Below are positions 7,257-26,228 of a DNA stretch of 29,822 nt, piece by piece; position 1 is the stretch's first letter, and every line of letters begins with the position of its first letter. Source of the DNA: an uncultured Thermotogae bacterium (GTDB lineage Bacteria; Bipolaricaulota; Bipolaricaulia; UBA7950; UBA9294); assembly GCA_964596555.1 (NCBI GenBank), contig CAZQUT010000002.1:1-29822 (forward strand). Direction: 5' to 3'. The notes below the pieces were generated by a model, which saw only the letters and a list, made by a program, of their open reading frames with translations, was not told the DNA's origin and ran no database searches. The position numbers and the translations under genes are program-made.

Positions 7257-8192
7257 TCATCTCTTCTCGCTCGTCAATTTGAACTTCTCAACCTCTGCCA
7301 GCGTAGGGAGTGAGGGCTGCGCTCCTCTGATGGTGGTGGCCAACGCACCGACCGCATTTGCCCATCGGATCGCATCCGACAGGCAGCAATCGTCCAGCGC
7401 CCATCCCAGGGCACCGTTAAACGCATCTCCAGCAGCAGTAGTATCAATCGGAGCAACGCCAAACGCAGGGAACTGACGCGTGCCATCGCGTTTAAACAAG
7501 TACGCTCCTTGGTCACCCGCCTTGCAGACTACGTGCCTCACACCGAGATCCAACAGCTTGTGCGCTGCTGCCTCTAGATCGTGTTCACCGGTCACAGCAA
7601 ACAATTCCCCCTTGTTTGGCGTCAGAAAATCAACTCGCTCAAGAAAGACGGACGAGAGGTCCTGCGCCGGAGCTGGGTCGAGGATCACCCGAGGATGTGT
7701 CGATGGTAATCGTCGCAATAGGTGATCGATCGTTTCCAGTGGAATCTCAAGCTGAAGAAGAAGCACGTCCGATCTTGCAATCGTTGGAAGCACCCGGTCT
7801 ATATAAGCGGTATCTACACGGGCATTCGCACCCGGGGTATAAGCAATGACGTTCTCACCATCCTCACTCACCCAGATGCTGGCAATCCCCGTGGACTGCC
7901 CCTCCTCTCGCTCGACCGCACTAACATCGATGCCGTTTTCCGCAAGGCTGTTCAAGAGTTCCTCCGCAAAGGGATCGACGCCGATCTTCCCATAGAAGGA
8001 GACCTGAGCCCCAAGGCGAGCTGCAGCCACAGCCTGGTTCGCCCCCTTTCCACCCGGGTAGCGGTCGAATCTATGACCGAGAACGGTCTCCCCTGGTTGA
8101 GGAAGGTGCGGGACCTCGGTGACGAGATCCATGTTGATGCTCCCCAATACACTGATCACTTGTCCAGATTCACCTCTCTTCTGTAAACTCAT
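7257..8192 (-). CDS. rbsK: Ribokinase (PfkB family)
   Basis: GSINMDLV, PGGKGANQAVAAARLG, LLQLEIP, LTPNKGE and the DTTAAGDAFNGAL signature. Confidence 0.88.
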   Translation of the reverse strand: MSLQKRGESGQVISVLGSINMDLVTEVPHLPQPGETVLGHRFDRYPGGKGANQAVAAARLGAQVSFYGKIGVDPFAEELLNSLAENGIDVSAVEREEGQSTGIASIWVSEDGENVIAYTPGANARVDTAYIDRVLPTIARSDVLLLQLEIPLETIDHLLRRLPSTHPRVILDPAPAQDLSSVFLERVDFLTPNKGELFAVTGEHDLEAAAHKLLDLGVRHVVCKAGDQGAYLFKRDGTRQFPAFGVAPIDTTAAGDAFNGALGWALDDCCLSDAIRWANAVGALATTIRGAQPSLPTLAEVEKFKLTSEKR

Positions 8193-9493
8193 GCGCTACG
8201 GATGATCGGCCCGACAATTTGCTTTCCCCGCTCTGCTGTCCATTGACTCAGTTTTGCGAAGCTCATCTTCTCAAACCCGATCACGTAACTTTCGAACTCC
8301 TGCCCGACAGGGCCCTTCCATTTATCAGGAATGCGCTCGTATCCAAGGATGGTGCCGAGAAGGCCACCAACTTGTCCGGTCGAGCAGTCTGTGTCAAATC
8401 CACACATGAGTGTAGTTGTGAGAGACTTCTCGAAATCCCCCTCTCCCAATAACAGGCCCGTGACTACAGTGGCGATGTTGGGAAAAGTGTGTATCCAGTG
8501 GTAATGGCCCAGCTCCTGCTGGATCTTTGCCAGCACGCCCTTCCAGTCTCCTATCTTGTTGCACCACCTGATAGTCCGTTCGACCACCTCGCTAAAACGA
8601 CTCTCTGGCGGAACGAACGCCAACGCCAGCCGCAGGATATCCTCGATCGACCGGTCGGAGAAGGCAATGCTGATAAGGGCGGCACAGAAGACCTCACCGT
8701 AGATCCCCTCTCGTCGATGCGAGATGATCGCATCGCGAAAGGCGAGCTCTGCGGCAAGATCGGGGCGAAACGGTGTCAGCAATCCATGTATCTCGCCGCG
8801 CATCTGTGCGCCAATCCACTCACTGCACGGATTTCGAAATCGCCCGCTCTCTGGCGGCATGATCCCTGCTTTGACGTTCTCCAATGCGCTCATCTCCGCA
8901 GTGAACGCATATGGCAGGTGCTCCACCCACTCCAGAGCTAGCTGCTCGCTAGTAAACGAAGAACCGTACTCATCAAGCACATGGAGCACAAGGATCGGGT
9001 AGGCCGTATCGTCATTCTCCACCTTAGGCGGGACGAGGTAGCTATTAACCGTCCCATAGCGGGAACGGATCATCTCACTTGTCCAGCCTTCCACCGGGTC
9101 ACCCAGTGCCGTGCCGATGCACTTCCCCACCCATCCTCCTTTTACTCGATCGAGATACTCCGAATCGGTGATCATACCGGGAATCCCTTTCGGAGGTTGA
9201 GGGAGCAAAGCAGCCATTTCGCTGAAAGTCGTGGGTCCGATGTTCTTGCCAGCTTCCAGCGCAAGGTGGATCTCCTTGTTAATACGAGAGATCCTGACAA
9301 GAAGCTTGTCCCAATTGCCATCCGTATAGCATTTCTCAGCGTGTTGGAGAAGCTTAAGGGCAGCATCCATGTTGTATCCCTGATTGATCATCGCTTGCAC
9401 AGCGGCACGCATGGGGTAGATCTTCACTCCGGAGAGGCTTGTCGTCTCCCACATGTTTGCCGCGTCCTCACGTCGCTTCTTCAATCGATCCAT
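8189..9493 (-). CDS. ADP-ribosylglycohydrolase (ARH/DraG) family protein with an N-terminal extension
   Basis: GGWVGKCIGTALGDPVEG, ENDDTAY and GFDTDCSTGQVG Mg-binding motifs. Start placed at the ATG at 9493 (GAGGT 4 nt upstream); the track start at 9544 overlaps the upstream gene. Confidence 0.85.
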   Translation of the reverse strand: MDRLKKRREDAANMWETTSLSGVKIYPMRAAVQAMINQGYNMDAALKLLQHAEKCYTDGNWDKLLVRISRINKEIHLALEAGKNIGPTTFSEMAALLPQPPKGIPGMITDSEYLDRVKGGWVGKCIGTALGDPVEGWTSEMIRSRYGTVNSYLVPPKVENDDTAYPILVLHVLDEYGSSFTSEQLALEWVEHLPYAFTAEMSALENVKAGIMPPESGRFRNPCSEWIGAQMRGEIHGLLTPFRPDLAAELAFRDAIISHRREGIYGEVFCAALISIAFSDRSIEDILRLALAFVPPESRFSEVVERTIRWCNKIGDWKGVLAKIQQELGHYHWIHTFPNIATVVTGLLLGEGDFEKSLTTTLMCGFDTDCSTGQVGGLLGTILGYERIPDKWKGPVGQEFESYVIGFEKMSFAKLSQWTAERGKQIVGPIIRSA

Positions 9494-9500
9494 GTATACC

Positions 9501-10652
9501 TCACTCATCCCGGAGTGCCTTGGCGAGAAGTTCGAGAATGTCAAGGACTTCTACTTTCGATCCTGCCTTGCTCTTGGCATCCAGAAGTCCACTCTGACAC
9601 GCCGGGCATGCACTCACCACTGTGTCCGCTCCCGTTGCTTCCGCCTCTGTAAACCGATCGAGCTCGCAATCCACGGACATTTCCTCGTAGTCATAGCGAA
9701 CAAACGCGCCGTTTCCACAGCAGAAAGAGTTATCACGGTTACGCGGCATCTCCACCAGCCTGAGCCCAGGGATCATTTCGATCAGTTCTCGCGGTGGCTC
9801 GTAAATTCCCATGTGTCTGCCAAGATTACAGGGATCATGATAGGTAACGACACGAGACAGCTTCTTCAGCTGAACAGGGTGCTTTGCGAGCTCCCCAGTA
9901 ATAAACTCAGTCAAGTGCATCGTCTTAAACGGGAGCGGCTCGCCGAGAAGCCGCGGCATCTCTTCCCTAAACGTACGCAAGCACCCGGGGCAGGCAAAGA
10001 CAACGGTCTCTATTCCAAGGCAGGAAATGGCTTCCAGATTCATCGCCGCCGTTTTTCTTGCATGATCCATCTTCCCTGCCGCGATATAGGGATGACCGCA
10101 ACATTGTTCGTTACCAAGAAGTGTGAAATCCACTCCCAGCTTTTCGAGAACCTGATAAGAACTACGGGCGATACCGCGTCTCAGGTAAGCAGTGGTGCAA
10201 CCAACAAAGAACAGGACACCTGCTTGCCTATCAATCCTTTCTCTGTTGGGAAGCCAGGCAAGTCTCTTCTCTCCGGGTTTCTTATACGGATTGCCAAACT
10301 CGTCCACCTGAGCAAGTACATCGCTGAGGCCAGAGGGCAACAAATCCCGCTCTGCCAGGTCCTCTTTCATCGCTGCGTAGATCTCAGTGAGCGGAAGATA
10401 CTTGAAGCACTGCTCTTGGCAAGCCTCACACTCGGTACAGGCAAAGATACGTTCTGCAACATCTTCGTCATACTCTATTTCCTTGTCGATCAGGGCACGC
10501 GCGATGGCAAGCTTTCCCCGCGCGCCATACGATTCAAGCCCATACGTTGCATATGGTGGACAGATCTTCTGTCCTTCCCCTTGTTCTTGATCGAAACAGA
10601 ACGCACACCGAAGACAGCTGTAGATCTGATCTCTATACTTCTCAAGCTTCAT
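9501..10652 (-). CDS. Fe-S oxidoreductase with two 4Fe-4S motifs and two CCG domains (HdrD/GlcF/GlpC-like)
   Basis: CLRCAFC, CTECEACQEQC, FFVGC, QCCG, FACPGC, YHDPCNLGR, FCCG, SACPAC. Confidence 0.9.
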   Translation of the reverse strand: MKLEKYRDQIYSCLRCAFCFDQEQGEGQKICPPYATYGLESYGARGKLAIARALIDKEIEYDEDVAERIFACTECEACQEQCFKYLPLTEIYAAMKEDLAERDLLPSGLSDVLAQVDEFGNPYKKPGEKRLAWLPNRERIDRQAGVLFFVGCTTAYLRRGIARSSYQVLEKLGVDFTLLGNEQCCGHPYIAAGKMDHARKTAAMNLEAISCLGIETVVFACPGCLRTFREEMPRLLGEPLPFKTMHLTEFITGELAKHPVQLKKLSRVVTYHDPCNLGRHMGIYEPPRELIEMIPGLRLVEMPRNRDNSFCCGNGAFVRYDYEEMSVDCELDRFTEAEATGADTVVSACPACQSGLLDAKSKAGSKVEVLDILELLAKALRDE

Positions 10653-12069
10653 GTTTCACTCCAGTGGGGAAGAGAAGGTCGGGGTTCAAGATACCGTTCG
10701 GGTCCATCGTGGTCTTGAGCGCCTTAAACAGCTCAAAAGACGTACCGAGCTTTCCCATGATGTACGGAGAAACCCCGGCACCCAAACCGCCCGGGCTCAT
10801 CCGCCCTTCCGTGAACATCAACTCGGCGATATCGCCGCGTAACTTCATCCCGTACTCCCAGGCGTCATTTCGGCGTTCATCATACAGGGTGTCGATCCAC
10901 AGGTAGGCCCCGTTGCGGGAGAAGTATGCATCAAGACCCTTGACTCGAATCCCGTATCGGGTGAAATCCGCATCGCGCTCTTCCCGTAGATTGCGGAACA
11001 GCCGAACCGCCTTCTTCAGCCCCTGAGTGGAGACAAACCCCGCTACCTCGGGGCAGAAGTACGGCCGATCACTGTAGTATGGTCCGGGCGCGGTGTTTCG
11101 CAGCCAGGAGTACATGTGCTCCTCCCAGTAGTGCCTCGTCCCCTCCGCAGAGGAAGGGCGCCCGCCGTGCGATTCGCAGATTGCAGCAGCCTCCTGAAGC
11201 CGCTCGCGTGCCCTAGTAGCACGATCACGAACGATCAGGTGGAGGAACCCGTCACCTTCCACTCCCGCCGGTTTAGGTCCACCGAACATGCCAACAATGA
11301 ACGTCGCTGCCTCGCGCATCTGAATACCATCCGCTGCATCGATTGCATCCTGATAGTCATCAAAAGCATAAAATGCAAACAGCTCCGTCTCCGGAACCGG
11401 CCGAATGCGATATGTTACCTTGGTGATAATGCCAAGGACCCCATACGACCCCATGAATAGCCCAGCAAAATCGGGCCCGTTAGCATTTCGCTCGATCGGC
11501 TCAGAATTCGGATTAGCGGCTGAGCCAGTGTTGATTACGCTTCCATCCGGAAGAACGACCTCAAGAGACAGGACATGATCGGCGGTCATCCCATACTCTG
11601 TAGCTCCATGTGGAATAGCATTGACCGCGACTGTCCCACCGATGGTGCATGAGAAGAGTCCTCCCCCACCGGGAACAGCAAGCTCCCGTCCCAGTTTATG
11701 CAAATGGTTGTCGATTCCATGCCAGATCGCCCCTGCCTGTGCAGTGACGTATCCCGCCTGCAGATCAACGCACTCTATCCGGTTCATCCTGGTTGTTTCG
11801 ATAATGATCACGCCGTCTTTAACGCCGCTTCCCAGGAAGGTTGTTCCCCGTCCCCGCGTGTAAATCGCTTTCTTGACTTTGTTCGCGAGACGGACAATCG
11901 CGGCCACCTCTTCTGTCGATCCAGGACGGACTACCGCGTCCGGAATTCCTGCTTTGTCTGGACCACAATCCCGTGAATAGCAGATCCTATCTACCATATG
12001 ATCGCTGACATACCGCTCACCAACGATCGCTACAAGTCCTTCCTTGATATTATTATCCATAACTTTCAC
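10642..12069 (-). CDS. FAD-binding oxidoreductase (VAO/PCMH fold; GlcD/alkyl-DHAP-synthase-like)
   Basis: PDAVVRP, RGRGTT, AQAG, CTIGG, LEVVLPDG, FMGSYGVLGIIT and C-terminal DPNGILNPD. Confidence 0.87.
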   Translation of the reverse strand: MKVMDNNIKEGLVAIVGERYVSDHMVDRICYSRDCGPDKAGIPDAVVRPGSTEEVAAIVRLANKVKKAIYTRGRGTTFLGSGVKDGVIIIETTRMNRIECVDLQAGYVTAQAGAIWHGIDNHLHKLGRELAVPGGGGLFSCTIGGTVAVNAIPHGATEYGMTADHVLSLEVVLPDGSVINTGSAANPNSEPIERNANGPDFAGLFMGSYGVLGIITKVTYRIRPVPETELFAFYAFDDYQDAIDAADGIQMREAATFIVGMFGGPKPAGVEGDGFLHLIVRDRATRARERLQEAAAICESHGGRPSSAEGTRHYWEEHMYSWLRNTAPGPYYSDRPYFCPEVAGFVSTQGLKKAVRLFRNLREERDADFTRYGIRVKGLDAYFSRNGAYLWIDTLYDERRNDAWEYGMKLRGDIAELMFTEGRMSPGGLGAGVSPYIMGKLGTSFELFKALKTTMDPNGILNPDLLFPTGVKHEA

Positions 12070-13405
12070 CTATCTTCTTAACCTCCCTAATAATAGCTTT
12101 CTCATCGATTGTCGTGATCGTCCGATCGCGCATGACGATGCGCCCATTAATGATTACCGTTTCAACATCGCTCCCCTTGGCACAATAGACAAGCGCAGGG
12201 ATGATATCGTCGCTCAAGTTGAACATATGCGGAGCAGAGGGATCCATGATGACAAGGTCAGCAAGCCGTCCCTCGTCAATGGTCCCCGCGTCGACTCGGC
12301 AGGCCGCAGCTCCAACTGCGGTCGCACTGGCAAAGATATCGCGCGCATCCAGGGCAGTTGGATCCATAGCTGCCACCTTCTGCAGGAGGACCCCGGTACG
12401 CATCTCCTCAAATGGGTCCAGGAGGTCATTTGATGCCGCGCCATCGGTTCCCATAGCGACATTGACACCAACCTGCCGCATCTTCGTGATTGGAGCGATC
12501 CCACTGCCAAGCTTCATGTTGCTCTTCGGGTTGTAGACCACTGTCACCGAGCGATTCTTGGCAAGCTCTATCTCCTTATCGGTAAGGTGAACGCCATGGA
12601 CGGCAAGAATCGGGCGAGAGAGAAAACCGATCGACTCCAGGTAAGAGAGAGGAGTCTTCCCCACCGTTTCCAGGGAGTGTTGCACCTCCCACTCCGTCTC
12701 CGACACATGTGTCTGAATCCCGAGGTCATATCGCTCAGCGGTCTCCATGATCCAAGTGAGCAAGCCCTCACTACAGGTAAACGGAGCGGAGGGCCCTAGG
12801 AAGACCTGCACGAGCGGATCTTCCGATGGCATCTGATGCCAGTCCTCAATAAGCTTCAGGGTCTCTTCCCGCAACCGCTCTGGCGTAGTGATCAAATCGT
12901 CGGGGACCCACTGATCGACCATACTCATCGCAGCGATCCCGCGGATGCCCATCTCGGCCCACGCTTGCGGAACTCCGGGAAGATTCATGTCCATGTCGAT
13001 GAACGTCGTGATCCCGCTTCGAATCATCTCTATCGTCCCGAGCATCGACCAGAGATAACCAATCTCACCTACGCTCCCTTCTCGCATTCGCCGCAGCACG
13101 TTACGCACAAACGGGAAGGTCACTTCCTCGCACCACGATACGAGCGGGACGTCATCCCTCCTACCCTTAAGCATCGATTGATAGAGGTGAGTGTGTGCGT
13201 TGACAAACCCGGGCGTGACGATCCGGCCTCTTCCATCGATAACGATGGTCTCCAGTGTTATCTCCTGTGATGTGACCTGACCGATCCGCACGATCCGATT
13301 CCCTTCGATCAGCACGTCCACATCGTGCTCCACACGGTGCGCGTCCCGAACGAGATGGGAGATATTCTCGATGAGGATCATCCTTTCTCTCATGTCATCC
13401 ACCAT
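12053..13405 (-). CDS. Metal-dependent amidohydrolase/deaminase (MtaD-like, 5'-deoxyadenosine/MTA/SAH deaminase family)
   Basis: PGFVNAHTH, QTHVSET, AVHGVH, NPKSNMKLGSG, GTDGAASN. The start may instead be 13393. Confidence 0.87.
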   Translation of the reverse strand: MVDDMRERMILIENISHLVRDAHRVEHDVDVLIEGNRIVRIGQVTSQEITLETIVIDGRGRIVTPGFVNAHTHLYQSMLKGRRDDVPLVSWCEEVTFPFVRNVLRRMREGSVGEIGYLWSMLGTIEMIRSGITTFIDMDMNLPGVPQAWAEMGIRGIAAMSMVDQWVPDDLITTPERLREETLKLIEDWHQMPSEDPLVQVFLGPSAPFTCSEGLLTWIMETAERYDLGIQTHVSETEWEVQHSLETVGKTPLSYLESIGFLSRPILAVHGVHLTDKEIELAKNRSVTVVYNPKSNMKLGSGIAPITKMRQVGVNVAMGTDGAASNDLLDPFEEMRTGVLLQKVAAMDPTALDARDIFASATAVGAAACRVDAGTIDEGRLADLVIMDPSAPHMFNLSDDIIPALVYCAKGSDVETVIINGRIVMRDRTITTIDEKAIIREVKKIGESYG

Positions 13406-14384
13406 TGCAATCCCTTCCTTCTAGAAGATCGACCAAGCACTTCACGTCCACCTTCCCAGCACGGCTTACGCGCCCGCTGGAGAGGTGATTGATCGTGATC
13501 TGCGCCGGTTTGTTGATGTCATTCAGATTAGGGATCTTCTCGAAGACCCCACCCGCTTCCCGCAACACATCGCAGAACAGGCGCCCGTAAATCGAAGCGG
13601 ATTCAAATGAGAGCCGGTGCGCAAGCTCATCCAAGCCGTCATCCGGAAAGCCGTCAACAGTAAGGAGCGCAGCGCCAGCGTAGTGAATGAAGTCATCGGG
13701 GTAGGGACGATTCTCTGTGGGAGATGCGCCTCCGTTCACCGGGCACACAAGCGCTCGCCCGATCATGTGTTTGACGATATGGGGATCGACGTCCAGGCTC
13801 TCTTTCATAGTGAAGATGACGCTCTCATTCACTCGTCCCGCGATCTGCGTCGCGCCAACCACACTTGCGATCGGTGCGGCGATCAGGGTCAACATCTGCG
13901 GCAGAACGCCGCTCTTCTCAGCAAGATGGAGCGCAACCGCATCATCGGGGAGACAATCGGTTTCAATGACGGCAATCCCGATCGCATCCTTCGCGGGCAA
14001 GTCTCCATCCAAACACAGACGGATAGGACCGGAAACGCGAATCCCCGGCTTATCCGCGCTCAATGGATAGGAGGTTTGCAGTCCGTATGTTGAGAGGAGA
14101 GGATGAAACGACTCGACAGTAATCTGTGGGAGGATGAATCCCCCAAGATCGGTGAGGTCAAGCGAGACGTTGGCCAGCCCTCCATGGCAGATCTCAATCA
14201 ACAGGCGCCCTGCCTCGAATGACCCAACTACGCCAAATCCAGCGTCGATCAACGTCGCTTTGCAGGGGAGTGTCTGTACAGAGAGGCCGTATTCCCATGC
14301 GTGGTCAATCAGAATGCGCGTGAGCTCGCCCGATCGGCGGGCAATATGCGCTTGCATTCTTGAATCGAGGCTTGGACTATTCAT
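13395..14384 (-). CDS. mch: Methenyl-tetrahydromethanopterin cyclohydrolase-like protein (divergent)
   Basis: Co-linear motifs matching Mch: LIDAG, GSFEAG, EICHGGLANV, SGP.R, ETDCLP, APIASVVGATQIAGRVNE, IYGRLF, SSGRVSRAGKV. Confidence 0.82.
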   Translation of the reverse strand: MNSPSLDSRMQAHIARRSGELTRILIDHAWEYGLSVQTLPCKATLIDAGFGVVGSFEAGRLLIEICHGGLANVSLDLTDLGGFILPQITVESFHPLLSTYGLQTSYPLSADKPGIRVSGPIRLCLDGDLPAKDAIGIAVIETDCLPDDAVALHLAEKSGVLPQMLTLIAAPIASVVGATQIAGRVNESVIFTMKESLDVDPHIVKHMIGRALVCPVNGGASPTENRPYPDDFIHYAGAALLTVDGFPDDGLDELAHRLSFESASIYGRLFCDVLREAGGVFEKIPNLNDINKPAQITINHLSSGRVSRAGKVDVKCLVDLLEGRDCNGG

Positions 14385-14389
14385 ATTCT

Positions 14390-15298
14390 CTACCGTTCAC
14401 CGACCACATCAGGAAGGTAAAGCTGATGCTTTCCCCACTTCCCTCCGAATGAAGGGGCGGTGATGCGTATTGTCCCTGGAGTTGCAGCAAAGGCATCAAT
14501 CGCCGTGCGCAATCCCTCTTTGATCTCGGCAAGCCCTACTCCGATGAGCGGGTACTCGATCACCGCATCCGCGTTATCCGGGATTTTCGTTTCAACTTCG
14601 TTGCGCAGCCCGGGGCAGAACGGCTCGTTGATCGTCAAGCCTTCGTCGCGATAATTGATGCCGCCTACCTTCGCTCCGCTGATTCCACCGAGTGGATAGT
14701 TGAAGAGAGAGACACCGTAGACATCGTTGAAGATGCGATCCGATGCCTCCTGTGCCGCGATAAGACATGAAGCCGCATTCTGAGCGAAGACCTCAAGCAC
14801 GCCGTCCATACCGTTGATGATGTGGAACTGCCGCTCGATCATGATGTCTCCCGTCATGATCGGAAGGCGTATCACATCGCGCCCGCCAAGTTTCTCCTCC
14901 CGCTCGAATCCATCGCCCCATCTTCTCACATGTTCGCCAATGGCGATCATCTCCCCATCTCTTCCCTGCAGGCTTGCATCGAAAAGCGAGCAAGTGGGAA
15001 GGTGTGGCAGGATGTACAAGCGATCGAGCAAGGCTTTGCGGAATGCATCCATCCCCAACTCTGTAGGAGCGTTGAACTGAATGAGAACGCCGGGGCGGGC
15101 ATCCGGAGATTCCGTCGGGGAGACGCGTCCCTCCACGCATGCTTGCAGCGGCGCAGAAGTGATCACGGAAAAGCCGGATAAATAAGTGGCTTCTTGCAGC
15201 GCTACTCTCTCTGTCAGGGCAGTAAGCAACACACGGCAGAGATAGACATCCGTACATTCACAGTTCACTTCTTCCAGTTCGATATTCTTGTACAGCAA
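14390..15298 (-). CDS. ftr: Formylmethanofuran:tetrahydromethanopterin formyltransferase-like protein (divergent)
   Basis: RVLLTA, GFSVI, SPDARPG, LLDR, PTCSLFDA, WGDGF, LPIMTGDI, SGAKVGG, FCPGL, VIEY, FGGKWG, all in Ftr order. SD AAAGGAG upstream. Confidence 0.85.
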   Translation of the reverse strand: MLYKNIELEEVNCECTDVYLCRVLLTALTERVALQEATYLSGFSVITSAPLQACVEGRVSPTESPDARPGVLIQFNAPTELGMDAFRKALLDRLYILPHLPTCSLFDASLQGRDGEMIAIGEHVRRWGDGFEREEKLGGRDVIRLPIMTGDIMIERQFHIINGMDGVLEVFAQNAASCLIAAQEASDRIFNDVYGVSLFNYPLGGISGAKVGGINYRDEGLTINEPFCPGLRNEVETKIPDNADAVIEYPLIGVGLAEIKEGLRTAIDAFAATPGTIRITAPSFGGKWGKHQLYLPDVVGER

Positions 15299-15319
15299 TG
15301 TTTCTCCTTTTCTTGTCTT

Positions 15320-16327
15320 CTAGATCATTCTTCCGTACGCATGAAGGGCGTCACGCCTGAGAGAGAGCACGACGCGGTTGCTCGGTGCAAAAGCACGTAT
15401 TGGCGTTCCATCGAGAATTAGGGCTGCATCCGCTTCGAGGCCCACAATCTCCACGCTGTCACCATCACCAAAGCTGATCTGCCGGAGAGTGACCGGTTCG
15501 ATGGCTTCGATATCCTTCTGAACGATATGCGTTCGAATCAAGACGGCACTTGCCACAGTGAGGACTCCCTCTTTGCCTAGGTATGGTCCCCAACACATCA
15601 ACCCACTCACAGCCTTTCCACTGTAGGGAACTGGATCATTGATCGGCGAGGCAACGATCTGCCCCATCTGCGTGTCCATACTGCTAACCATTAGTAGCTC
15701 ATTCTTGTAGATTCGCGTTTTCTCCCCACAAACTGAGTGCGGCTGAGCTTCCCTCTTCGTTCCAGTGAGCATCGCACGGGCGTCTAGATCAAGGCGCACC
15801 CCATCTCTCGTTCCAAAGAAGGTATTGCTGAAAGTGACGTCGTTGAATGCAATCCCTATGTGTTCACCATTCACCCGCACATCAATTCCGTGAATCGGAC
15901 GAGCCGCGAGGCAAGACAGATCGAGCCGTTCCAAATCCCTCCCACGTATCGTTACAAGCGGTCCCACGTTGGACGACCCAGCACCGACTCCCAGGAGGCG
16001 TACCTTCGCTCCACTAGCTACTATTGTGTTTGCGACTGCGCATAGGGTCCCATCCCCACCAACGCCAATCAGCGTATCAACTTTCCTCGCAAGCATCGCC
16101 TTCGCCGCGCGTTCAATGAACGCAAAATCGGAGGTCACGGGAACATCCATTTGGATAAAGTCCTGTCCTTTTTCTTGGGCAATGGATGCACCAACTGTCC
16201 CGGACACGATCAATAGGGAGGCGATCTCAACGCGAGAGAAGAGAATGGGAAGCAGCTCCCGCATCGCTGTCTCTCCCCGTCCAGCAGCAGGATGGACAAT
16301 CAAACCGGCACGCACGATGTGGTTCAC
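15320..16327 (-). CDS. NAD-kinase / diacylglycerol-kinase superfamily protein (ATP-NAD kinase/AcoX-like)
   Basis: IVHPAAGRG, GVGGDGT, GSSNVG and AFNDV (NE/ND motif). Start placed at the GTG at 16327 (GTGA overlap, GGAGGGG SD). Confidence 0.75.
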   Translation of the reverse strand: MNHIVRAGLIVHPAAGRGETAMRELLPILFSRVEIASLLIVSGTVGASIAQEKGQDFIQMDVPVTSDFAFIERAAKAMLARKVDTLIGVGGDGTLCAVANTIVASGAKVRLLGVGAGSSNVGPLVTIRGRDLERLDLSCLAARPIHGIDVRVNGEHIGIAFNDVTFSNTFFGTRDGVRLDLDARAMLTGTKREAQPHSVCGEKTRIYKNELLMVSSMDTQMGQIVASPINDPVPYSGKAVSGLMCWGPYLGKEGVLTVASAVLIRTHIVQKDIEAIEPVTLRQISFGDGDSVEIVGLEADAALILDGTPIRAFAPSNRVVLSLRRDALHAYGRMI

Positions 16328-17151
16328 TTGATCGCCCCTCCCGTAAGACCGGAGACAAGGTATTTCTGGCCCAGCATGAACAGGATCAGGACAGGGATAC
16401 ATGCCAGCAACGCTGCTGCGCTCAATGGCCCCCACCGAACTACCCCGCCTGAACCCATGAACCGCGCCAGGAATACGGGAAGAGTGTAGTGAGCGTTATC
16501 ACGCATAATGACTAATGCAAAGAAAAACTCGTTCCACGATAGAAGCAATGAGAATGTCCCCACTGCCAGGAGCCCAGGAACGGAAAGAGGAAGAACGATC
16601 TTGACGAGCGATCTCAGCCGGCCACACCCGTCAATGCGAGCAGCTTCTTCTAAGGCAACCGGGATCTTGTCGAAGTAACCCTTAAGCAACCAGATGCCGA
16701 AGGGCATGCTGAAACTGGTGTACATAATCACAAGGCCAGGGATCGTATTCAACAAATGGTAGGTCTTCAATACGGTGAAGAGTCCCAGAACCATGATGAT
16801 CCCAGGGAAGGACTGGGTGGCAAGGAGCCACACGGAGAATATGGTTCGCCCACGAAACCTGAACCGCGATAGAGCATATCCGGCCGGCGTAGAAACGATG
16901 ATCGACAAGAGCACGGTCGCCAGGGCAACGATGCTGCTATTCTTGAAGTTCGTTATAAAGGTCGACTCGGTAAAGATCTCCTGGTAGTTGACAAACGTCA
17001 CTTCCCTTGGAACCTCCATTGGGGAAGCGATAATTTCTTGCTCTGTTTTGAACGAGTTAAACAGGAGAAAGACCATCGGAAAGGCAAGGAGGAGCATGAA
17101 CAGGACGACAAACACGTGCAACAGCACCTGTTTTACTGGGGACATCCTCAT
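16324..17151 (-). CDS. Carbohydrate-family (CUT1) ABC transporter permease, MalG-like
   Basis: NSFKT, FKNS, GYALSRFRFRGR, EAA loop LEEAARIDGC, SWNEFFFAL. Start placed at the ATG at 17151 (ATGA overlap). Confidence 0.93.
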   Translation of the reverse strand: MRMSPVKQVLLHVFVVLFMLLLAFPMVFLLFNSFKTEQEIIASPMEVPREVTFVNYQEIFTESTFITNFKNSSIVALATVLLSIIVSTPAGYALSRFRFRGRTIFSVWLLATQSFPGIIMVLGLFTVLKTYHLLNTIPGLVIMYTSFSMPFGIWLLKGYFDKIPVALEEAARIDGCGRLRSLVKIVLPLSVPGLLAVGTFSLLLSWNEFFFALVIMRDNAHYTLPVFLARFMGSGGVVRWGPLSAAALLACIPVLILFMLGQKYLVSGLTGGAIK

Positions 17152-18026
17152 CTTAGTACCTCCCGAATGTAAAAGACGATCACGACAAGAAGGCACAACA
17201 GAATAAGTAGACCGATCGCGGCTCCATAGCCCGCTTGATAGTACATGAATGCGTTTTCGTAGGCGTACAGGGGAAGAGTGAGAGACGCATTCCCCGGGCC
17301 CCCTTTTGTCAAAATGAACACGATGTCGAACATGTTGAATGTCCAAATCGTCTCCAGAGTAAAGATTATCAGTACAACTTTCTTGATGCTCGGGACGATG
17401 ATGTTAACCTGAGTCTGAATATAGCTCGCCCCGTCGATTGCTGCAGCATCGACGATATCTTTATTGATCGTCTGCAGCCCGGCAAGAAGCATTACAGTGA
17501 CAAATGGAATCCCCATCCAAATATTGGTGATGATGCATGTCCAGAGAGCAAGCTGCGGATCAGTGAGCCAATTGGGCGGATGGGCCATGCCCAAAGAATG
17601 GAGGACAGTATTCAGTGGCCCGCCGTTAAGAAAGATGTAGCGCCACATTAGTGAGACAACAACCGGAGGCAGGGCCCAAGGAACGAGAGCTATTCCGCGG
17701 AACATCCTTCGGAAACGCAGGAAGCGGGAATTAAGCATTGTGGCCAGCCAATAGGAAAGGACAAACTGCATCCCAACGCTGGTTATCGTCCAGACAAGGC
17801 TGTTACTGAATGCACGCAGGAAAAGGGGATCCTGAAACAGAAGTCCCACATTTTGGAAGCCGACAAACACGGTCTCTCGTGCGAGAGCACGGTAAGTGTA
17901 GAACATCCGCGTAATTCCCTGTATCAATGGATACAGGCTGACACCACAGAGAACAACTAACGCTGGAATGAGAAAGGGAATGGCTCGGCGCTCTTCGTTG
18001 AATGCTCCGCGATTGCTGTGCATCAT
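17148..18026 (-). CDS. Carbohydrate-family (CUT1) ABC transporter permease, MalF-like
   Basis: FVGFQN, PWALPPVV, W.GIPF, EAA loop DAAAIDGAS, TKGGPGNAS. Confidence 0.93.
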   Translation of the reverse strand: MMHSNRGAFNEERRAIPFLIPALVVLCGVSLYPLIQGITRMFYTYRALARETVFVGFQNVGLLFQDPLFLRAFSNSLVWTITSVGMQFVLSYWLATMLNSRFLRFRRMFRGIALVPWALPPVVVSLMWRYIFLNGGPLNTVLHSLGMAHPPNWLTDPQLALWTCIITNIWMGIPFVTVMLLAGLQTINKDIVDAAAIDGASYIQTQVNIIVPSIKKVVLIIFTLETIWTFNMFDIVFILTKGGPGNASLTLPLYAYENAFMYYQAGYGAAIGLLILLCLLVVIVFYIREVLR

Positions 18027-19054
18027 TGACCAAGCCCTTCAGCAAACTCTATCACAATCTTCAATCCTTTAGCTTCCTTGGCAAGTTGCAGTGCTTTCTC
18101 TAGCTCGGAAAAGGGGAAAGTATGTGTGATGATGCCCGGGAAATCTTGTGCATGATCGTTCAACCAGTTGACGGCTTCTCCAAACTGGCGCAGGTTGTAG
18201 CCGAAACTGCCCACAAGGGAGATCTCGCGGTAGTGTACCGCAAATGCATCGATACATACTCGATCACCCTTCGGTAATCCTCCGAATAGAAGAACCCGTC
18301 CAGCGGGCGCTGCCATATCAAAAGCCGTTTCTACTGGTGCCTTGCTTCCGACGGCGACTAGGATGCGATCAGCTTTGTCCCTGCCCCACTCGGCGGTCAT
18401 CCGCTCGCTGAGGTCCTCTTCCTGTGGTGAGATAACAGCCAGGCCGAGGTGGCGCGCCGCTTCAATCCGTGAAACGGAGATCTCGCTCAGTAGAACCTGT
18501 GCGCCTTTCGTTCTTGCCAACAGGGCAAGCATCACTCCCATCGGCCCGCCACCGATGACAAGGACGGTATCACCGTTACTGATGTCCGCCTTCTCGATCC
18601 CATTATGAACACAGGCAAGTGGTTCAGCTAGCGATCCGACGGAGAAATCGACCTCCGCTCCCAAGCGGAAGGTCCCCTGTTCCACGATCGCTCGTGGAAG
18701 AAGGATGAACTCCTGAAACGCGCCCGTAACAAATGACTTGTGTTCGCACATCTCCCCAAAATCGTGCTGGCAGAGATCGCACACTCCACACTCAACATAC
18801 GGAGCAGCAACGACTCGCTCTCCTACCTTGAATCGGTCAACTTCTGGCCCCACTTCCACTATGGTCCCAGTAAACTCATGTCCAAGTATGCAAGGAGGGG
18901 TGAAGTACGGGTGTCCCTTGAAGTAAGCCTTAACGTCGGTTCCACACAGTCCGACGGCTTGTGTCTTCAGCACTATCTCTCCAGGACCGGCGTGCGGCGT
19001 GGGAATCTCCCGATAACCGATCTTCCCAATCTCGACAAGCTCAGCGATCTTCAT
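18023..19054 (-). CDS. Zn-dependent alcohol/polyol dehydrogenase (MDR, sorbitol/threonine dehydrogenase-like)
   Basis: GLCGTD, LGHE, structural Zn motif CGVCDLC...C, AEPLAC, Rossmann motif IGGGPMG. Confidence 0.92.
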   Translation of the reverse strand: MKIAELVEIGKIGYREIPTPHAGPGEIVLKTQAVGLCGTDVKAYFKGHPYFTPPCILGHEFTGTIVEVGPEVDRFKVGERVVAAPYVECGVCDLCQHDFGEMCEHKSFVTGAFQEFILLPRAIVEQGTFRLGAEVDFSVGSLAEPLACVHNGIEKADISNGDTVLVIGGGPMGVMLALLARTKGAQVLLSEISVSRIEAARHLGLAVISPQEEDLSERMTAEWGRDKADRILVAVGSKAPVETAFDMAAPAGRVLLFGGLPKGDRVCIDAFAVHYREISLVGSFGYNLRQFGEAVNWLNDHAQDFPGIITHTFPFSELEKALQLAKEAKGLKIVIEFAEGLGQ

Positions 19055-19080
19055 CTTTGATGTCCTTCTGATCGTCTCTC

Positions 19081-19107
19081 AAGAAAGAAGGGGGGCTCTC
19101 GCCCCCC
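19081..19107 (-). terminator. Intrinsic terminator inside the operon
   Basis: Minus strand GGGGGGC-GAGA-GCCCCCC-TTCTTTCTT: a 7-bp GC stem, GNRA tetraloop and U-rich tail, just downstream of the stop at 19116. Confidence 0.75.
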
Positions 19108-19115
19108 ATAAAAAT

Positions 19116-19631
19116 CTAGTACTCGACCCGGATCTCGACGACGTACCAGTTCCACTGGTTCTCGTCGTAGAGCTCTATGGTCTCTGGATCGGAGTTGTAC
19201 GGGAAGGCAAGCTTCACCGGTCCACCCACGCTTGCTGGGAGGTCATCACCATCGAGAGTGGTAACCAAAAGGACCGGATAGTAGAGGGCATCCCTGATTG
19301 CAACGGGGACTTCCTTATCATCCGAAGCGATCGTCACGGCAGTGCTAGCACCGGCGGGAATCCCCACGTAGTCGAGAACCGCCTTCAGCGTCACACCACC
19401 GTAGGCCTGTTCTCCCATCCACGGATCCTCCACTACAAAGGCAACGTAGGGAAGTGCCTTCAGCATGTCGATATCAAACTCGAACACGTCACCATTATTG
19501 GTCAGCGCGATCGCTCCCGATACCGTAAATACAACCTCTCCAGCAGGTACGGGGACTTCTTTCCCCCACACACTCACGGCCATGAGTGTAATCACCAGTA
19601 CGCATAGCAACACCTTAGAAACATTTTTCAT
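19116..19631 (-). CDS. Exported protein with an oxidoreductase molybdopterin-binding-like (sulfite oxidase/MsrP-type) fold
   Basis: Signal peptide MKNVSKVLLCVLVITLMAVSVWG, then FTVSGAI, DPW, GVTLKAVL, ASDD, LDG, GGPVKLAFP, WNWYV. Strong SD GGGAGG. Fold call made by motif resemblance. Confidence 0.68.
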   Translation of the reverse strand: MKNVSKVLLCVLVITLMAVSVWGKEVPVPAGEVVFTVSGAIALTNNGDVFEFDIDMLKALPYVAFVVEDPWMGEQAYGGVTLKAVLDYVGIPAGASTAVTIASDDKEVPVAIRDALYYPVLLVTTLDGDDLPASVGGPVKLAFPYNSDPETIELYDENQWNWYVVEIRVEY

Positions 19632-19736
19632 AATCTATCCTCCCTTGTCTGTCTTTTGCTTCGTTTGGATCTATCTTGTTCTTATACTTATGCTCATGCT
19701 TATAATTATCACCTCCATAAATCGCAGATTACCCCC

Positions 19737-20999
19737 CTATTGCAGGCCCATCCTCTTTAGGAACATGTTCCCCTGCGTCGTTGCATTGTTGAGAGCTGTA
19801 TCAAGGTCTCTTTTTCCCAAGACAACGAGTTCTAACTGCGGCAGGAATGATTGCCACTCCCACGAGAAGAATGCAAACATGTGCGGCTTCACGTCCCGAG
19901 CGTAGGGCAGCCACTGATACGCGACGTTCCACTGCCCTCCTTCTGTTTGAAATTCTGGCCGATCGATGGCGCTCTGTCTGACCGGGAAGAGCCAGTCAGC
20001 ATAGGCAATCCGGGCTGAATTCTCCACATTGGTGAAGAACTTCACGAACTCGGCCGCCTCATCTTTGTGTGGAGAGTCAATGTATATGCCCAACGATTGC
20101 GGATCAGATTCGGTGACCGTCCTTTCATCTCCCTTAACCTGCAGCATCCCCCAATCGAGTTTCCCCTTTGTCAGTCGCTCGATCCAGCTTCGTACCCAGC
20201 AACCGTAGCTGAACATCGCATACTTACCAGTTCTAAACCCTTGCAGCAGGCTCATGAAGTCATAACTCAAGATATCCTGCGGCATCGTCTTATCTACCGT
20301 TACTAGATCGGTGAAACTCTTGATCGCCTGCCTAGCGTTATCGTCAATGTCTACGTGCCACGTCCCATCGTCATACTGCTGGAGCACGTGTCCATTGTTC
20401 TCATCCACCAGACACCACCACAGACGCTGCTCGAGCGGGGCGAGTAGCCCCCACGTGGTGACCTCGCCGGTCTCATCCCTCTTGGTCAGTAGCTGCGCGT
20501 AGCCACGGAGTTCGTCCCAGGTGATCATCCCATCTTCAGGTAGAACGATCCCCGCGTCGGTGAACAGGGCCTTGTTGTAGAAGATGACCAGTGTCTCTTG
20601 CAAAAGGGGCATCCCATAGATAGCGCCGTTATCATCGCTAACCCCATCCCATATCGATGAGGAGATATCGGCCAGTGTGTCATCGCTCAGGTAATCGTTG
20701 AGCGGAGCAGCGTAGCCGAGCATCCCATACTCATAGCACATTACTGAATCCTCATGGAAGATGTCCGGGGCTTGCCCACCCTGAAAACTAGTCAACAGAT
20801 AGTCGTCCAGGTTCTCCCAGCCTTGCCAATTGATCTCGACCTGAATGTCCGGATTAGCCTCATTCCACTCCGCGACGATAGCCTTGATCTCCTTCACCGT
20901 ATCTCCCTGCCAGGCAGGGCAGACAAACATGAGGTCGGCGGCCGATCCGAGAACCCCAAGCATCGAGACCATCAGAGCCAGCAACATAACTCGTTTCAT
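19737..20999 (-). CDS. Carbohydrate-family ABC transporter substrate-binding protein (Sec signal peptide, no lipobox)
   Basis: Signal peptide MKRVMLL, WNEANPDIQV, GQAPDIF, YGMP, FYNKALF, TWDEL, FRTGKYAM. SD AAGGAGG supports a start at 20999 or 21002. Confidence 0.93.
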   Translation of the reverse strand: MKRVMLLALMVSMLGVLGSAADLMFVCPAWQGDTVKEIKAIVAEWNEANPDIQVEINWQGWENLDDYLLTSFQGGQAPDIFHEDSVMCYEYGMLGYAAPLNDYLSDDTLADISSSIWDGVSDDNGAIYGMPLLQETLVIFYNKALFTDAGIVLPEDGMITWDELRGYAQLLTKRDETGEVTTWGLLAPLEQRLWWCLVDENNGHVLQQYDDGTWHVDIDDNARQAIKSFTDLVTVDKTMPQDILSYDFMSLLQGFRTGKYAMFSYGCWVRSWIERLTKGKLDWGMLQVKGDERTVTESDPQSLGIYIDSPHKDEAAEFVKFFTNVENSARIAYADWLFPVRQSAIDRPEFQTEGGQWNVAYQWLPYARDVKPHMFAFFSWEWQSFLPQLELVVLGKRDLDTALNNATTQGNMFLKRMGLQ

Positions 21000-21035
21000 C
21001 ATTCCTCCTTTCATGCTCTTACACCCTCCCTTTTG

Positions 21036-22700
21036 TTAATCTGCTGCCTCGTCGTACTTCGTGAAGAAGATGGGGTCGTAGGGTTTTATCAGTGTCGCGC
21101 TGTGCTCGCGATAAATACCTACTATCCCGATCACATCCTTCCTTTCCACTGGAATAGGGAACTTGCCTATGATAATGGTTGCACTTCCGTCACTTGCCGA
21201 GATGTCGTTACCCATAATTGCCTTGACTTCGAGTCGGGGAACCGCAACTGTCTTTCCGATGAAGACCTCACTATGGGACTTCATCTCGTCGATCGTTAAA
21301 TTGGGGTTTAAGATGTAGAAAGACCGCTCACGGGAGACGGTTTCTCCATCCACCATCAGAAAGTCGATCGTCAATGAATGGTAGCCGCCGTCCAGCGTTG
21401 AGAAGTTCAGGTTTCCGTAGGCGGTGCTCCAAAGCATATTGTGAGATAACCCTGCTTCTATTGATGCTCTGTCATCGAGTTGCCAGGAAGCGCTCTTCGC
21501 TTCCCCCCACACCGCTGCCTGCAAGGTATCGTTCCAGAAGACAACCGCCCCTTGGGGTGAGCTGAGTTCAACTGTGTTCAGGCCCACCTCCTGCCAGATA
21601 CTCTCCAACCGCCCGCGGCTCATCCGGTACACCCGATATCCAAACTCGCTTCCATCTGGGGCCTCCCCTTCCCACCAGGAGCCGCATACTGCTCCAGATG
21701 TAAGCTCATAGAAGGGGTATTGCTGGTGTATAAGGAAGTTCGCGTGCCAAGAGCCATCTAACAAAGCAGTGATACCGATATTTGCTAAGAGCTTGAGCAT
21801 CTGTGCATTCTCCTCGGTATTAGCCCAAGAAGGGGTTGGCTCGTGACAGAAGACCACAATAGGGGCATTCGGATCTGCTGCGGCCAGATCCTGCTCTATC
21901 CAAACAAGTTGATTTTGGGAGACTGTATAAGTGAGTTTTGTGCCAGAAAGCTGCATGGTGTCTAAAACGACAAAGTGGATACCTTTCCTATTAAATGAGT
22001 AATAGGTAGGACCAAAGTATTTTTCGTATATCCCTTTCCCTACGGCTTCATCCCGCACTATGTCATGGTTCCCTTCCACAGCGAAGAAAGGGGAAGTAAA
22101 GTTTGCGGCAAACTGGTTGGCTACATAGGCCATCCATTTGTCGACCAGCTCAACAGGTGGCCGTTGCGCATCGGCCACAACGTCTCCTGTCAGCATAACA
22201 AAATCCGGTGCGAGGCTGTTTACCTCATCGATGATCGAATCCAATACCCCTTGAGGGAGGACTTTCATCCGTCGATCGTAGAAGGCTTTCTTGAACTCAT
22301 CCGGGTCAGTCGCGTAGTGCGTGTCCGAGAGTTGAACGAAGACGAGCGGGGAATCGTCCACTACCTCCCCCAGTGGGAAGTCAAGGGGTTTCCCTTCCGT
22401 AAGGTCCCGGTACCATCCGTCAAGCGGCCGGGTCCCGCTGGGCGTGCAGATAAAGACGAATCCAGCTTCGGGATCATGGTCCAGCGCGAAAACGCCGTTA
22501 TCATCCGTCGACACTATTGTAACCCCATCGCTCACGACCACCCCAGATAGTGGAAGATCGGCGCTGTCGTATTGCAGATCCTTGTTGTAATCGATGTAGA
22601 TCATTCCTGTTACCCCATAAAGGACGGCGCTTGCCAGTATCAGGGTACAGAGTGCTATCCCGATTGCCAGTGCAAGCCGTAATCTTCTCTGCATCATCAT
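21036..22700 (-). CDS. Secreted calcineurin-like metallophosphoesterase with an N-terminal beta-sandwich domain and a C-terminal extension
   Basis: Signal/anchor helix, DYNKD...PLSGVVVSDG, then SDTH, TGDVV, GNHD, FCHEP, GSWH and SGAVCGSWWEG. Confidence 0.85.
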   Translation of the reverse strand: MMMQRRLRLALAIGIALCTLILASAVLYGVTGMIYIDYNKDLQYDSADLPLSGVVVSDGVTIVSTDDNGVFALDHDPEAGFVFICTPSGTRPLDGWYRDLTEGKPLDFPLGEVVDDSPLVFVQLSDTHYATDPDEFKKAFYDRRMKVLPQGVLDSIIDEVNSLAPDFVMLTGDVVADAQRPPVELVDKWMAYVANQFAANFTSPFFAVEGNHDIVRDEAVGKGIYEKYFGPTYYSFNRKGIHFVVLDTMQLSGTKLTYTVSQNQLVWIEQDLAAADPNAPIVVFCHEPTPSWANTEENAQMLKLLANIGITALLDGSWHANFLIHQQYPFYELTSGAVCGSWWEGEAPDGSEFGYRVYRMSRGRLESIWQEVGLNTVELSSPQGAVVFWNDTLQAAVWGEAKSASWQLDDRASIEAGLSHNMLWSTAYGNLNFSTLDGGYHSLTIDFLMVDGETVSRERSFYILNPNLTIDEMKSHSEVFIGKTVAVPRLEVKAIMGNDISASDGSATIIIGKFPIPVERKDVIGIVGIYREHSATLIKPYDPIFFTKYDEAAD

Positions 22701-22710
22701 AGGTACCTCC

Positions 22711-23457
22711 TTAATCGCTCTGCGAATGGACTAGCTCCGTAAGTTGTTCAACCTCTCGTGTGGGATCGGCGGCCTCGAAGATGTTTCTGCCGAAGGCAAC
22801 ACCCGCGGCATGCAACGCGAGCGCGTCACGCACCATAGTCAGTGGGTCATCTACTTTTGGACCGCCAGCAATGAGAATCGGAACGGGGCAACTGTCAATA
22901 ACAGATTTGTAGGCTGGTGCACCCGTGAAGTAGGCCTTGATACAATTGGCCCCGAGTTCGTACCCCACCCGTGCCGCGCAACGCACCCACCCTGTATCGT
23001 AGAATCTGTCCGGTTCAACGGGGAGTATCTCCGCGATGAGCGGCATACCATAGTGCCGACAATCTCCTGCGATCTTCGCGAGAAGTTCGAGCGAGCGGGC
23101 TTCTCCCGCTCCTCCGATGAACCCCATCACCAAGACAGCGTCCGCGCCGAGAGAGACGGCCTGTTTCACCGTGGCGATCAGGCGGTGGTAATCGAAATCT
23201 GGGTTATGCTCGGTCGATGCCCCGGTCAGCCGCAAGATGAGCGCTGACCTTCCGGCATAGATGGATGCGAATTGCGCCGCAGGGCCGGGATTCAGGATTA
23301 TCCCATCCGCCCCGCCGTCGACCACCTTCCCTATGACCCCCTCCATGCTTTCGAGTCCTTTTGCCTCGTGCTTGAACTGCCCGTGGTCGAGGGCGATGAC
23401 GACCGCCCGTCCATCCGCACGGAAGATCCGCCTCAGCCGAATCATCTTTCCACTCAT
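22711..23457 (-). CDS. Class I (DhnA/LsrF-type) aldolase
   Basis: ALDHG, GADG, LGADAV, YGMPLIAE, ARVGYELGA, Schiff-base Lys in CIKAY, IAGGPK, GVAFGRNIF. Confidence 0.9.
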   Translation of the reverse strand: MSGKMIRLRRIFRADGRAVVIALDHGQFKHEAKGLESMEGVIGKVVDGGADGIILNPGPAAQFASIYAGRSALILRLTGASTEHNPDFDYHRLIATVKQAVSLGADAVLVMGFIGGAGEARSLELLAKIAGDCRHYGMPLIAEILPVEPDRFYDTGWVRCAARVGYELGANCIKAYFTGAPAYKSVIDSCPVPILIAGGPKVDDPLTMVRDALALHAAGVAFGRNIFEAADPTREVEQLTELVHSQSD

Positions 23458-24459: not shown

Positions 24460-24482
24460 GGAAATCGTTTTCCGAAATCGTT
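24460..24482. promoter_or_regulatory. LacI-type operator (GGAAATCGTTTTCC, 24460-24473) plus an adjacent repeat GAAATCGTT (24474-24482)
   Basis: CG-centred near-palindrome with 6 of 7 pairs matching, resembling LacI-family operators. It sits between the -10 box and the regulator start codon. Confidence 0.65.
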
Positions 24483-24487
24483 ACACC

Positions 24488-24516
24488 ACCATAACACAAC
24501 TCTTGGAGGATGTCAA
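24488..24516 (-). promoter_or_regulatory. Sigma70-type promoter of the operon
   Basis: Minus strand TTGACA (24516-24511), 17-bp spacer ending in TGT (extended -10), TATGGT (24493-24488). Confidence 0.75.
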
Positions 24517-25975: not shown

Positions 25976-26228
25976 CGCCCTCCATTGCAAGTGTACCATC
26001 CCCGTCGCTTCTCAGTCCACTGATTGCAGATTACATTGCAGGGGGGAGGAGCGCACTAAGAAGCACACATGCGATATGCAAGCAACAAGACATGCTTGCC
26101 AACTGACAACAGCGCACTAACGGAGAGCTAACGGCACCAATTGCCGCTTCTGTGACCTTGCGATTTAGCCAAGTTGTATGATAGCATTACAGGTAGCAAC
26201 CGCATAGAAATTTCTAGGGAGGAGAAGG

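Follow-up and report, generated by a model that had tools for sequence, protein, structure and literature searches.

A conserved Bipolaricaulota operon that may scavenge a methanopterin-family pterin

Introduction

The reductive uric acid/2,8-dioxopurine pathway, which consists of XdhAC/XdhD, YgfK or UacX, SsnA, HyuA and YgeW/Y/X (bioRxiv 2025.04.24.650524, 2025.05.19.654654), is one of several described systems that share genes with the operon reported here. The operon lies on contig CAZQUT010000002.1 (assembly GCA_964596555.1) of an uncultured Thermotogae bacterium placed by GTDB in Bipolaricaulota. The window, meaning the whole stretch of DNA analyzed (29,822 nucleotides), is the entire contig, and the genome is 74.6% complete. 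An earlier note on this DNA had proposed that an operon at 7257-22700 disassembles an archaeal cofactor, either methanopterin-like or F420/flavin-like. From sequence comparison, we tentatively read the locus as a LacI-controlled operon for the anaerobic scavenging of a pterin of the methanopterin family (methanopterin, sarcinapterin or dephospho-tetrahydromethanopterin from dead cells), with a rough probability of 0.42. More broadly, the operon probably takes up and degrades a pterin- or guanine-like compound that carries phosphate, ribose and a sugar alcohol, and methanopterin fits best among single candidates. The earlier interpretation is partly supported: its pterin part is favored by a match to PruR, a deaminase site, orphan Mch and Ftr homologues and separate archaeal clusters, whereas F420 or flavin fits poorly.

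Like the 2,8-dioxopurine pathway, the operon has an SsnA-like protein beside a PF01180 FMN reductase that is without an FAD domain (the UacX architecture), as well as a hydantoinase, and a PF00291 pyridoxal phosphate (PLP) enzyme lies next door on the opposite strand. Unlike that pathway, the operon has an SsnA that scores below the family cut-off, is without Xdh, YgeW, YgeY and YgeX, and adds two tungsten AOR-family oxidoreductases, an ARH-fold glycohydrolase, ribokinase, a polyol module, a PruR-like protein, Mch and Ftr. The lower module of the operon works like the 2,8-dioxopurine pathway but is not a member of it. The aerobic pterin/lumazine cluster of Cupriavidus sp. LA-1 (PMC12391406) shares a proposed initial pterin deamination and the link from pteridine to purine. 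In contrast to that cluster, which acts on free pigments and not on a ribosylated cofactor, the operon has no molybdenum lumazine dehydrogenase, amidohydrolase-2 isomerase or UbiD decarboxylase.

PruR proteins (PMC11194511; 7KOS, 7RKB) are likewise exported, with a truncated sulfite-oxidase fold, Pro-Trp for the Mo-binding Cys and a second pocket Trp, but no DcpA-like signaling partner lies near the PruR-like gene, which instead adjoins the gene for an ATP-binding cassette (ABC) binding protein. With the tetrahydromethanopterin (H4MPT)/methanofuran C1 pathway (Mch, Ftr/FhcD; PMC6926001) the operon shares folds and the catalytic Arg/Glu (Mch) and Glu (Ftr), but its Mch and Ftr fall below cut-offs, their pocket motifs are changed and their genes are dispensable. 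A module of LacI, SBP_bac_1 ABC transporter, ARH and ribokinase on plasmid pJCM18538 of Mycolicibacterium arabiense has the same ARH subfamily (~30% identity); modules of this type are without any ring-degrading or C1 genes, and their substrate is unreported in the literature searched. No paper on this gene set or on methanopterin degradation was found in that literature, most subscription journals being outside its coverage, and nothing relevant was found there on methanopterin scavenging, ARH with ribokinase catabolism, or Mch in Bipolaricaulota or purine clusters.

Results

The operon is formed by 21 minus-strand genes running from 24455 down to the contig end. Its predicted control elements and its genes, in the order of transcription, are as follows.

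24488..24516 (-), predicted sigma70-type promoter of the operon, 10/12 consensus match
24460..24473 (-), predicted LacI-family palindromic operator, a motif that recurs before orthologous lacI
23454..24455 (-), LacI-family repressor, assigned from sequence searches
22711..23457 (-), class I (DhnA/ADH-synthase-like) aldolase, below family cut-offs
21036..22700 (-), exported calcineurin-like metallophosphoesterase, PF16371+PF00149, hydrophobic N-terminus
19737..21014 (-), sugar-type (SBP_bac_1) solute-binding protein, family match
19116..19631 (-), exported PruR-like protein of the pterin-binding fold, 171 aa, Oxidored_molyb fold, PDB matches
18023..19054 (-), Zn-dependent polyol/threonine-type dehydrogenase, family match
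17148-18026 and 16324-17151 (-), two ABC permeases, from sequence search
15320..16327 (-), NAD-kinase/DAGK-fold kinase, proposed ketose kinase, family match, no solved relative
14390..15298 (-), divergent Ftr-like protein, PF01913+PF02741, Glu245 equivalent kept, Ser209 equivalent Ala
13395..14384 (-), divergent Mch-like cyclohydrolase, PF02289, Arg184/Glu187 kept, pocket loops rewritten
12053..13405 (-), amidohydrolase with a guanine/pterin-type deaminase site, MtaD/SsnA-type
10642-12069 (-), GlcD-like FAD protein, 2-hydroxyacid metal motif absent
9501-10652 (-), GlcF-like CCG/4Fe-4S partner, family match
8189..9493 (-), ARH-fold glycohydrolase with a helical N-terminal extension, PF03747 (E 1e-49), Mg-binding acids kept
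7257..8159 (-), ribokinase, 311 bits, over the TIGR02152 cut-off of 299.65
5396-7255 and 3495-5405 (-), two tungsten AOR-family oxidoreductases, family match
2183-3502 (-), SsnA-like amidohydrolase, 265 bits against a cut-off of 444
1070-2179 (-), PreA/UacX-like FMN-Fe-S reductase, PF01180
3..1073 (-), hydantoinase/dihydropyrimidinase, cut by the contig end, 65% identical to the gene at 24614-25999

Intergenic gaps are mostly -17 to +26 nt, with a largest gap of 105. The -35/-10 spacing is alike upstream of orthologous lacI genes, and the operator motif (at most two mismatches) precedes lacI in 9 of the 11 orthologous loci; only five near-matches occur in the whole 1.27-Mb genome. Many Bipolaricaulota genomes show the same gene order and content, with 40–95% protein identity. 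Because order and content recur and the operator is present in these nine loci, the gene grouping is not due to chance. Among 151 Bipolaricaulota genomes, profile matches were obtained for the Ftr-like protein in 18, the PruR-like protein in 22, ARH in 21 and all three in 16; the matching genomes are kin, and these counts show conservation rather than independent trials. Searches with profiles and sequences placed every gene family named in the earlier note in or beside 7257-22700. Most lie inside that range, but the aldolase and both AORs are just outside; the true unit is larger, both of its ends having been missed, and three genes in the range had gone unnamed (the NADK-fold kinase and the GlcD/GlcF pair at 9501-12069).

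The hydantoinase gene at 24614-25999 was rejected as part of the operon transcript; the promoter sits between that gene and lacI. Neomarinimicrobiota was rejected as a second phylum with the operon, the record concerned (L022) being the same contig as that of G147, a genome of the window's own family (f1). By record title, the relatives come from lake, wetland and vent sediments and a digester, with no methanogen-free control. Some operon copies (L014, L016, L045, L063, L066, L088) have a second pair of solute-binding protein and permease genes, the binding proteins being ~40% identical, which implies two imported forms. In genome G036, a highly divergent Ftr-like gene stands beside ribokinase (L101 10228-12116) and the remaining operon is absent from the locus, which suggests operon decay.

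The exported PruR-like protein and the deaminase bear on the nature of the ring. In the case of the PruR-like protein, the top solved relatives are 7KOS (E 1.5e-16) and 7RKB (E 1e-14), and sulfite oxidases reach only 0.002. PruR is defined by a Pro-Trp motif and has a pocket of Asn102, Tyr104 and Trp160 (PMC11194511). The Pro70-Trp71 pair of the operon's protein, replacing the Mo-Cys of the truncated SUOX fold, is invariant, and Trp162 is nearly so. The gene comes after a binding-protein gene in nearly all loci, and the protein was found in every operon copy checked over its region.

In all ~40 orthologues the deaminase has His-x-His-x-x-Gln, as in the 8-oxoguanine deaminase 3HPA. Features of the methylthioadenosine/S-adenosylhomocysteine (MTA/SAH) deaminases 3LNP and 4F0R are missing: Gln stands for Met in His-x-His-x-x-Met, Ser for the His of the Pro-His-Ala-Pro-Tyr loop, and a hydrophobic residue for the ribose-binding Glu. 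These motifs presumably distinguish enzymes of the MTA/SAH/adenosine type from those for a 2-amino-4-oxo-pyrimidine. By this comparison, the site points to a 2-amino-4-oxo-pyrimidine ring, i.e. pterin or guanine and not adenine, as the likely substrate. We put a pterin substrate at somewhat better than even odds.

Between import and the ring, the operon encodes a possible route for a riboside and a polyol. The phosphoesterase metal motifs are conserved among orthologues. Solved relatives of the solute-binding protein are distant only (best E 2.5e-19), and because there are no close ones for it or for the NADK-fold kinase, no ligand can be read for either. No ABC ATPase gene was found in the operon; MalK-type ATPases are encoded elsewhere in the genome. 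Characterized ARHs cleave alpha-ribosides. In the operon's ARH, the dinuclear Mg ligands Asp178, Asp179, Asp384 and Asp386 are invariant in 34 sequences, and the Glu152 equivalent is kept in 11 aligned sequences. Its fold matches are MJ1187, DraG and ARH3 (also structures 7AQM and 7ARW), and it scores far below the DraG family TIGR02662 (21.5 against 337 bits). An invariant Trp243 replaces a Gly of the loop that we take to bind the pyrophosphate of ADP-ribose. At another locus (L048 8928-15047), a related ARH is flanked by a PfkB kinase and a gene of the dCMP-deaminase family, with nrdR and nrdD located downstream.

The ribokinase implies free ribose and therefore that phosphate is removed first, which fits the exported phosphoesterase. 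The class I aldolase keeps the Schiff-base Lys174 and the catalytic Asp. Oxidation at C4 of a 1-substituted D-ribitol would give an L-ribulose-type ketose, whose C3 configuration would suit a class I Schiff-base aldolase after phosphorylation. Together, the side-chain enzymes add up to a consistent pathway for a 1-substituted ribitol that is alpha-ribosylated.

The Mch-like protein falls below the TIGR03120 cut-off (157.8 against 228.8 bits), but its predicted model has a TM-score of 0.83 to Mch structures. Arg184 and Glu187, which we take to be the catalytic Arg183/Glu186 of Mch in A. fulgidus numbering, are invariant in 29 sequences. The Ftr-like protein is also below its family cut-off (171.8 against 292.6 bits), and such proteins form a supported clade separate from canonical Ftr. 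Its Glu248 is the retained equivalent of Glu245, which is catalytic in Ftr (PMC6926001). MptG, FwdA and FwdC were not found in five host genomes (75–92% complete, four of the five at least 90%), the search controls being positive. As judged by gene content, the host Mch and Ftr are orphans, and mch and ftr matches in Bipolaricaulota, Atribacterota and gut Firmicutes do not demonstrate an H4MPT C1 pathway.

Members of the same Ftr clade also occur at other loci, including archaeal ones. In one archaeal locus, which has replication factor C nearby, such an Ftr stands with two Mch and a different ARH; the locus further encodes two kinases (PfkB and FGGY xylulokinase-like), a short-chain dehydrogenase/reductase, a phosphoesterase of the purple-acid type, a Mer-like protein (PF00296) and an ABC system with SBP_bac_1. 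At a second, probably archaeal locus, a deep member of the Ftr clade is accompanied by Mch, XdhABC, a Zn dehydrogenase, a class I aldolase and again an SBP_bac_1 ABC system. At a third locus, an Ftr of the clade adjoins an Mtd-family gene. The presence of largely non-orthologous genes in the same roles suggests a substrate with a ring, a riboside, a polyol and a phosphoester. All four are present in methanopterin. The Mer-like gene of the archaeal locus does not have to encode a C1 enzyme, because PF00296 is listed as an alternative ring reductase of the reductive purine module (bioRxiv 2025.05.19.654654). In two separate clusters (L053 1298-2767, L091 1-1215), DUF2193 (PF09959) adjoins a divergent Ftr, one of them also with an MtmB-like gene.

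Clusters of Oscillospiraceae/Christensenellaceae (L024, L026, L033-L038) have two Mch paralogues, with Mch of the operon's clade among them, as well as ssnA, preA, a deaminase, an amine oxidase, a hydantoinase, Xdh, a 2-oxoacid dehydrogenase and often a BMP transporter. No side-chain genes were found in the Firmicute Mch loci fetched, and no MptG in five Firmicute genomes with such clusters. These clusters likely represent an undescribed N-heterocycle pathway and may act on free pterin, folate or purine.

Among the redox genes, the AOR at 3495-5405 is closest to the P. furiosus AOR 1AOR (468 bits, against 247 for benzoyl-CoA reductase). The GlcD/GlcF pair was rejected as a 2-hydroxyglutarate, lactate or glycolate dehydrogenase because the C-terminal His/His/Glu-His metal motif is lost; its role is perhaps C-N oxidation. 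The PreA/UacX-like reductase has Glu-x-Val-Ser-Tyr at the Cys-loop position in all 14 aligned sequences, replacing what we take to be the catalytic Cys loop of dihydroorotate/dihydropyrimidine dehydrogenases.

Upstream of the operon, the hydantoinase at 24614-25999 passes TIGR02033. The two hydantoinase paralogues, of 65% protein identity, share 191 bp at 97.9% DNA identity (1-191 and 24891-25081) at the contig end, which points either to gene conversion in the recent past or to a repeat at which the assembly broke. The gene for a PLP fold-type II protein (PF00291) at 26229-27692 (+) is oriented divergently to hydA, and the protein is a possible equivalent of the diaminopropionate lyase for reductive purine breakdown. 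Another contig, C102, carries an XdhA-like gene and two carbamoyltransferases below the YgeW cut-off. An NTPase_1 family protein and RmuC at 27791-29614 (+) are ordinary and have no relation to the operon. No Rfam match was obtained.

Discussion

Each reaction of the pathway that follows is proposed from the gene families, conserved residues and synteny described above. Outside the cell, the phosphoesterase would strip 2-hydroxyglutarate and phosphate, and the PruR-like protein and the solute-binding protein would capture the dephospho pterin-riboside. ARH would then cut the alpha-ribosyl bond, with ribokinase salvaging the ribose. The Zn dehydrogenase would oxidize C4 of the aryl-ribitol and the NADK-fold kinase would phosphorylate the resulting ketose, which the class I aldolase would cleave to dihydroxyacetone phosphate and an aryl-acetaldehyde, the latter being oxidized by a tungsten AOR. 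Cleavage of the C-N link that joins the ring to the aryl arm probably falls to the non-canonical GlcD/GlcF pair. The deaminase would convert the 2-amino-4-oxo ring to lumazine, and PreA/UacX, SsnA and hydantoinase would carry out ring reduction and opening in the manner of reductive purine degradation. The Mch-like and Ftr-like proteins would be optional additions; the simplest role for them would be to take a methenyl or formyl group off the loaded cofactor.

Several observations weigh against a methanopterin-family substrate. In the PruR-like protein the Asn102 equivalent is an invariant Asp and Tyr104 is lost, and the His-x-His-x-x-Gln site of the deaminase cannot tell pterin from guanine. 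ARH with ribokinase is a generic riboside module, present in aerobes too: this ARH subfamily also occurs with ribokinase and ABC transporters in Mycolicibacterium and in genome G072, and with ribokinase and a BMP transporter in Rhizobium. The Glu-His pair of the GlcD-like protein has become Pro-Gly and the upstream His pair is gone in all full-length orthologues, so 2-hydroxyglutarate oxidation is not encoded, and the operon shows no evident gene for the aminophenyl ring. The part made up of SsnA, PreA and hydantoinase looks like reductive purine degradation. In Firmicutes and Atribacterota, the Mch clusters have transporters of the BMP (nucleoside) type, and those of Firmicutes carry Xdh as well.

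The remaining points concern Mch and Ftr. Segment 93-95 and the C-terminal pocket loops of the Mch-like protein are rewritten across the whole clade, and Ser209 of Ftr, which we take to be a catalytic residue, is Ala throughout the divergent clade. The contiguous operon of genome G063 (93% complete) has a hydantoinase in place of ftr and mch, genome G116 has ftr without mch, and Mch was not found in four genomes of family f6, G063 included. An essential ring-opening role for Mch was rejected on its absence from f6; Mch and Ftr are accessories and not the core ring-opening step. The operon therefore does not hold a diagnostic enzyme for each bond of the cofactor, since Mch and Ftr are dispensable and remodelled, ARH with ribokinase is generic, and the search turned up no enzyme acting on 2-hydroxyglutarate or on the aromatic ring.

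The main rival substrate, which we consider unlikely, is a nucleoside or nucleotide of modified guanine or 7-deazaguanine; the earlier note had held a modified nucleoside to be equally open, and it ranks here below the methanopterin family. ARH would act as a nucleosidase, GlcD/GlcF would remove an N-linked side chain, the AORs would oxidize an aldehyde or replace Xdh, and the base would enter a 2,8-dioxopurine-like route. The SsnA, PF01180 reductase and hydantoinase genes make up the SsnA/UacX/HyuA module (bioRxiv 2025.05.19.654654), and the XdhA-like and carbamoyltransferase genes of contig C102, the compatibility of the deaminase site with guanine and the occurrence of ARH and ribokinase with BMP transporters elsewhere all agree with such a substrate. 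However, the PruR-like protein and the dehydrogenase-kinase-aldolase set, which needs an acyclic polyol, are left unexplained, and the deaminase is without the Glu with which nucleoside deaminases bind ribose. Even with a modified guanine as substrate, the pathway would be an undescribed anaerobic one.

Still less probable is some other pterin conjugate, be it a remnant of molybdo- or tungstopterin guanine dinucleotide, a pterin glycoside or a folate-like compound. The PruR match and the deaminase site apply equally here, and a pterin-guanine dinucleotide would be a source of pyrophosphate and ribose as well as of a guanine ring, but we know of no such conjugate with an alpha-riboside or a five-carbon ribitol, and the recruited Mch, Ftr and Mtd homologues point to pterin-aminobenzyl cofactors. 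Aerobic pterin breakdown feeds into xanthine (PMC12391406). The PruR pocket is too short for intact molybdenum cofactor (PMC11194511). An operon in which one regulator governs a pool of modules for different necromass products (ribosides, polyol phosphate, N-heterocycles), rather than for a single substrate, seems slightly more doubtful again. Its modules do occur apart, the ring module alone in Firmicutes and ARH-ribokinase alone, and some copies have two sets of binding protein and permease. The single promoter and operator speak against pooling, as does the similar functional combination built in archaea from largely non-orthologous genes, which argues for one linked substrate.

We give the lowest odds to F420, FAD or riboflavin, or NAD/ADP-ribose. 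The ribityl route of dehydrogenase, kinase, aldolase and AOR would also shorten an N-ribityl chain, and ARH has the ADP-ribose fold. However, flavin and deazaflavin rings are without a 2-amino group, F420 is without ribose, flavins leave ARH and the deaminase unexplained, and GlcD is without the lactate-dehydrogenase metal site. NAD/ADP-ribose, once held to be equally open, fits poorly: the deaminase is not of the adenosine type, and Trp243 alters the presumed pyrophosphate-binding loop of ARH.

For a methanopterin-family substrate, an origin in methanogens is too narrow a claim, since methylotrophic bacteria and archaea other than methanogens are further sources of H4MPT-type cofactors (PMC6926001). 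Because of this, the proposed comparison of methanogen-rich and methanogen-free habitats cannot discriminate.

No described route was found for methanopterin recycling in anoxic sediments. If the methanopterin reading is right, at the tentative odds given at the outset, the operon would encode the first methanopterin biodegradation pathway, with ARH as a small-molecule alpha-ribosidase, a PruR-type uptake aid and repurposed Mch and Ftr unloading C1 units, a similar combination having been assembled separately in bacteria and archaea. The operon provides a short, ordered set of soluble enzymes for testing, and it offers a handle on two open families, the bacterial ARH-ribokinase modules and the PruR-like proteins outside signaling.

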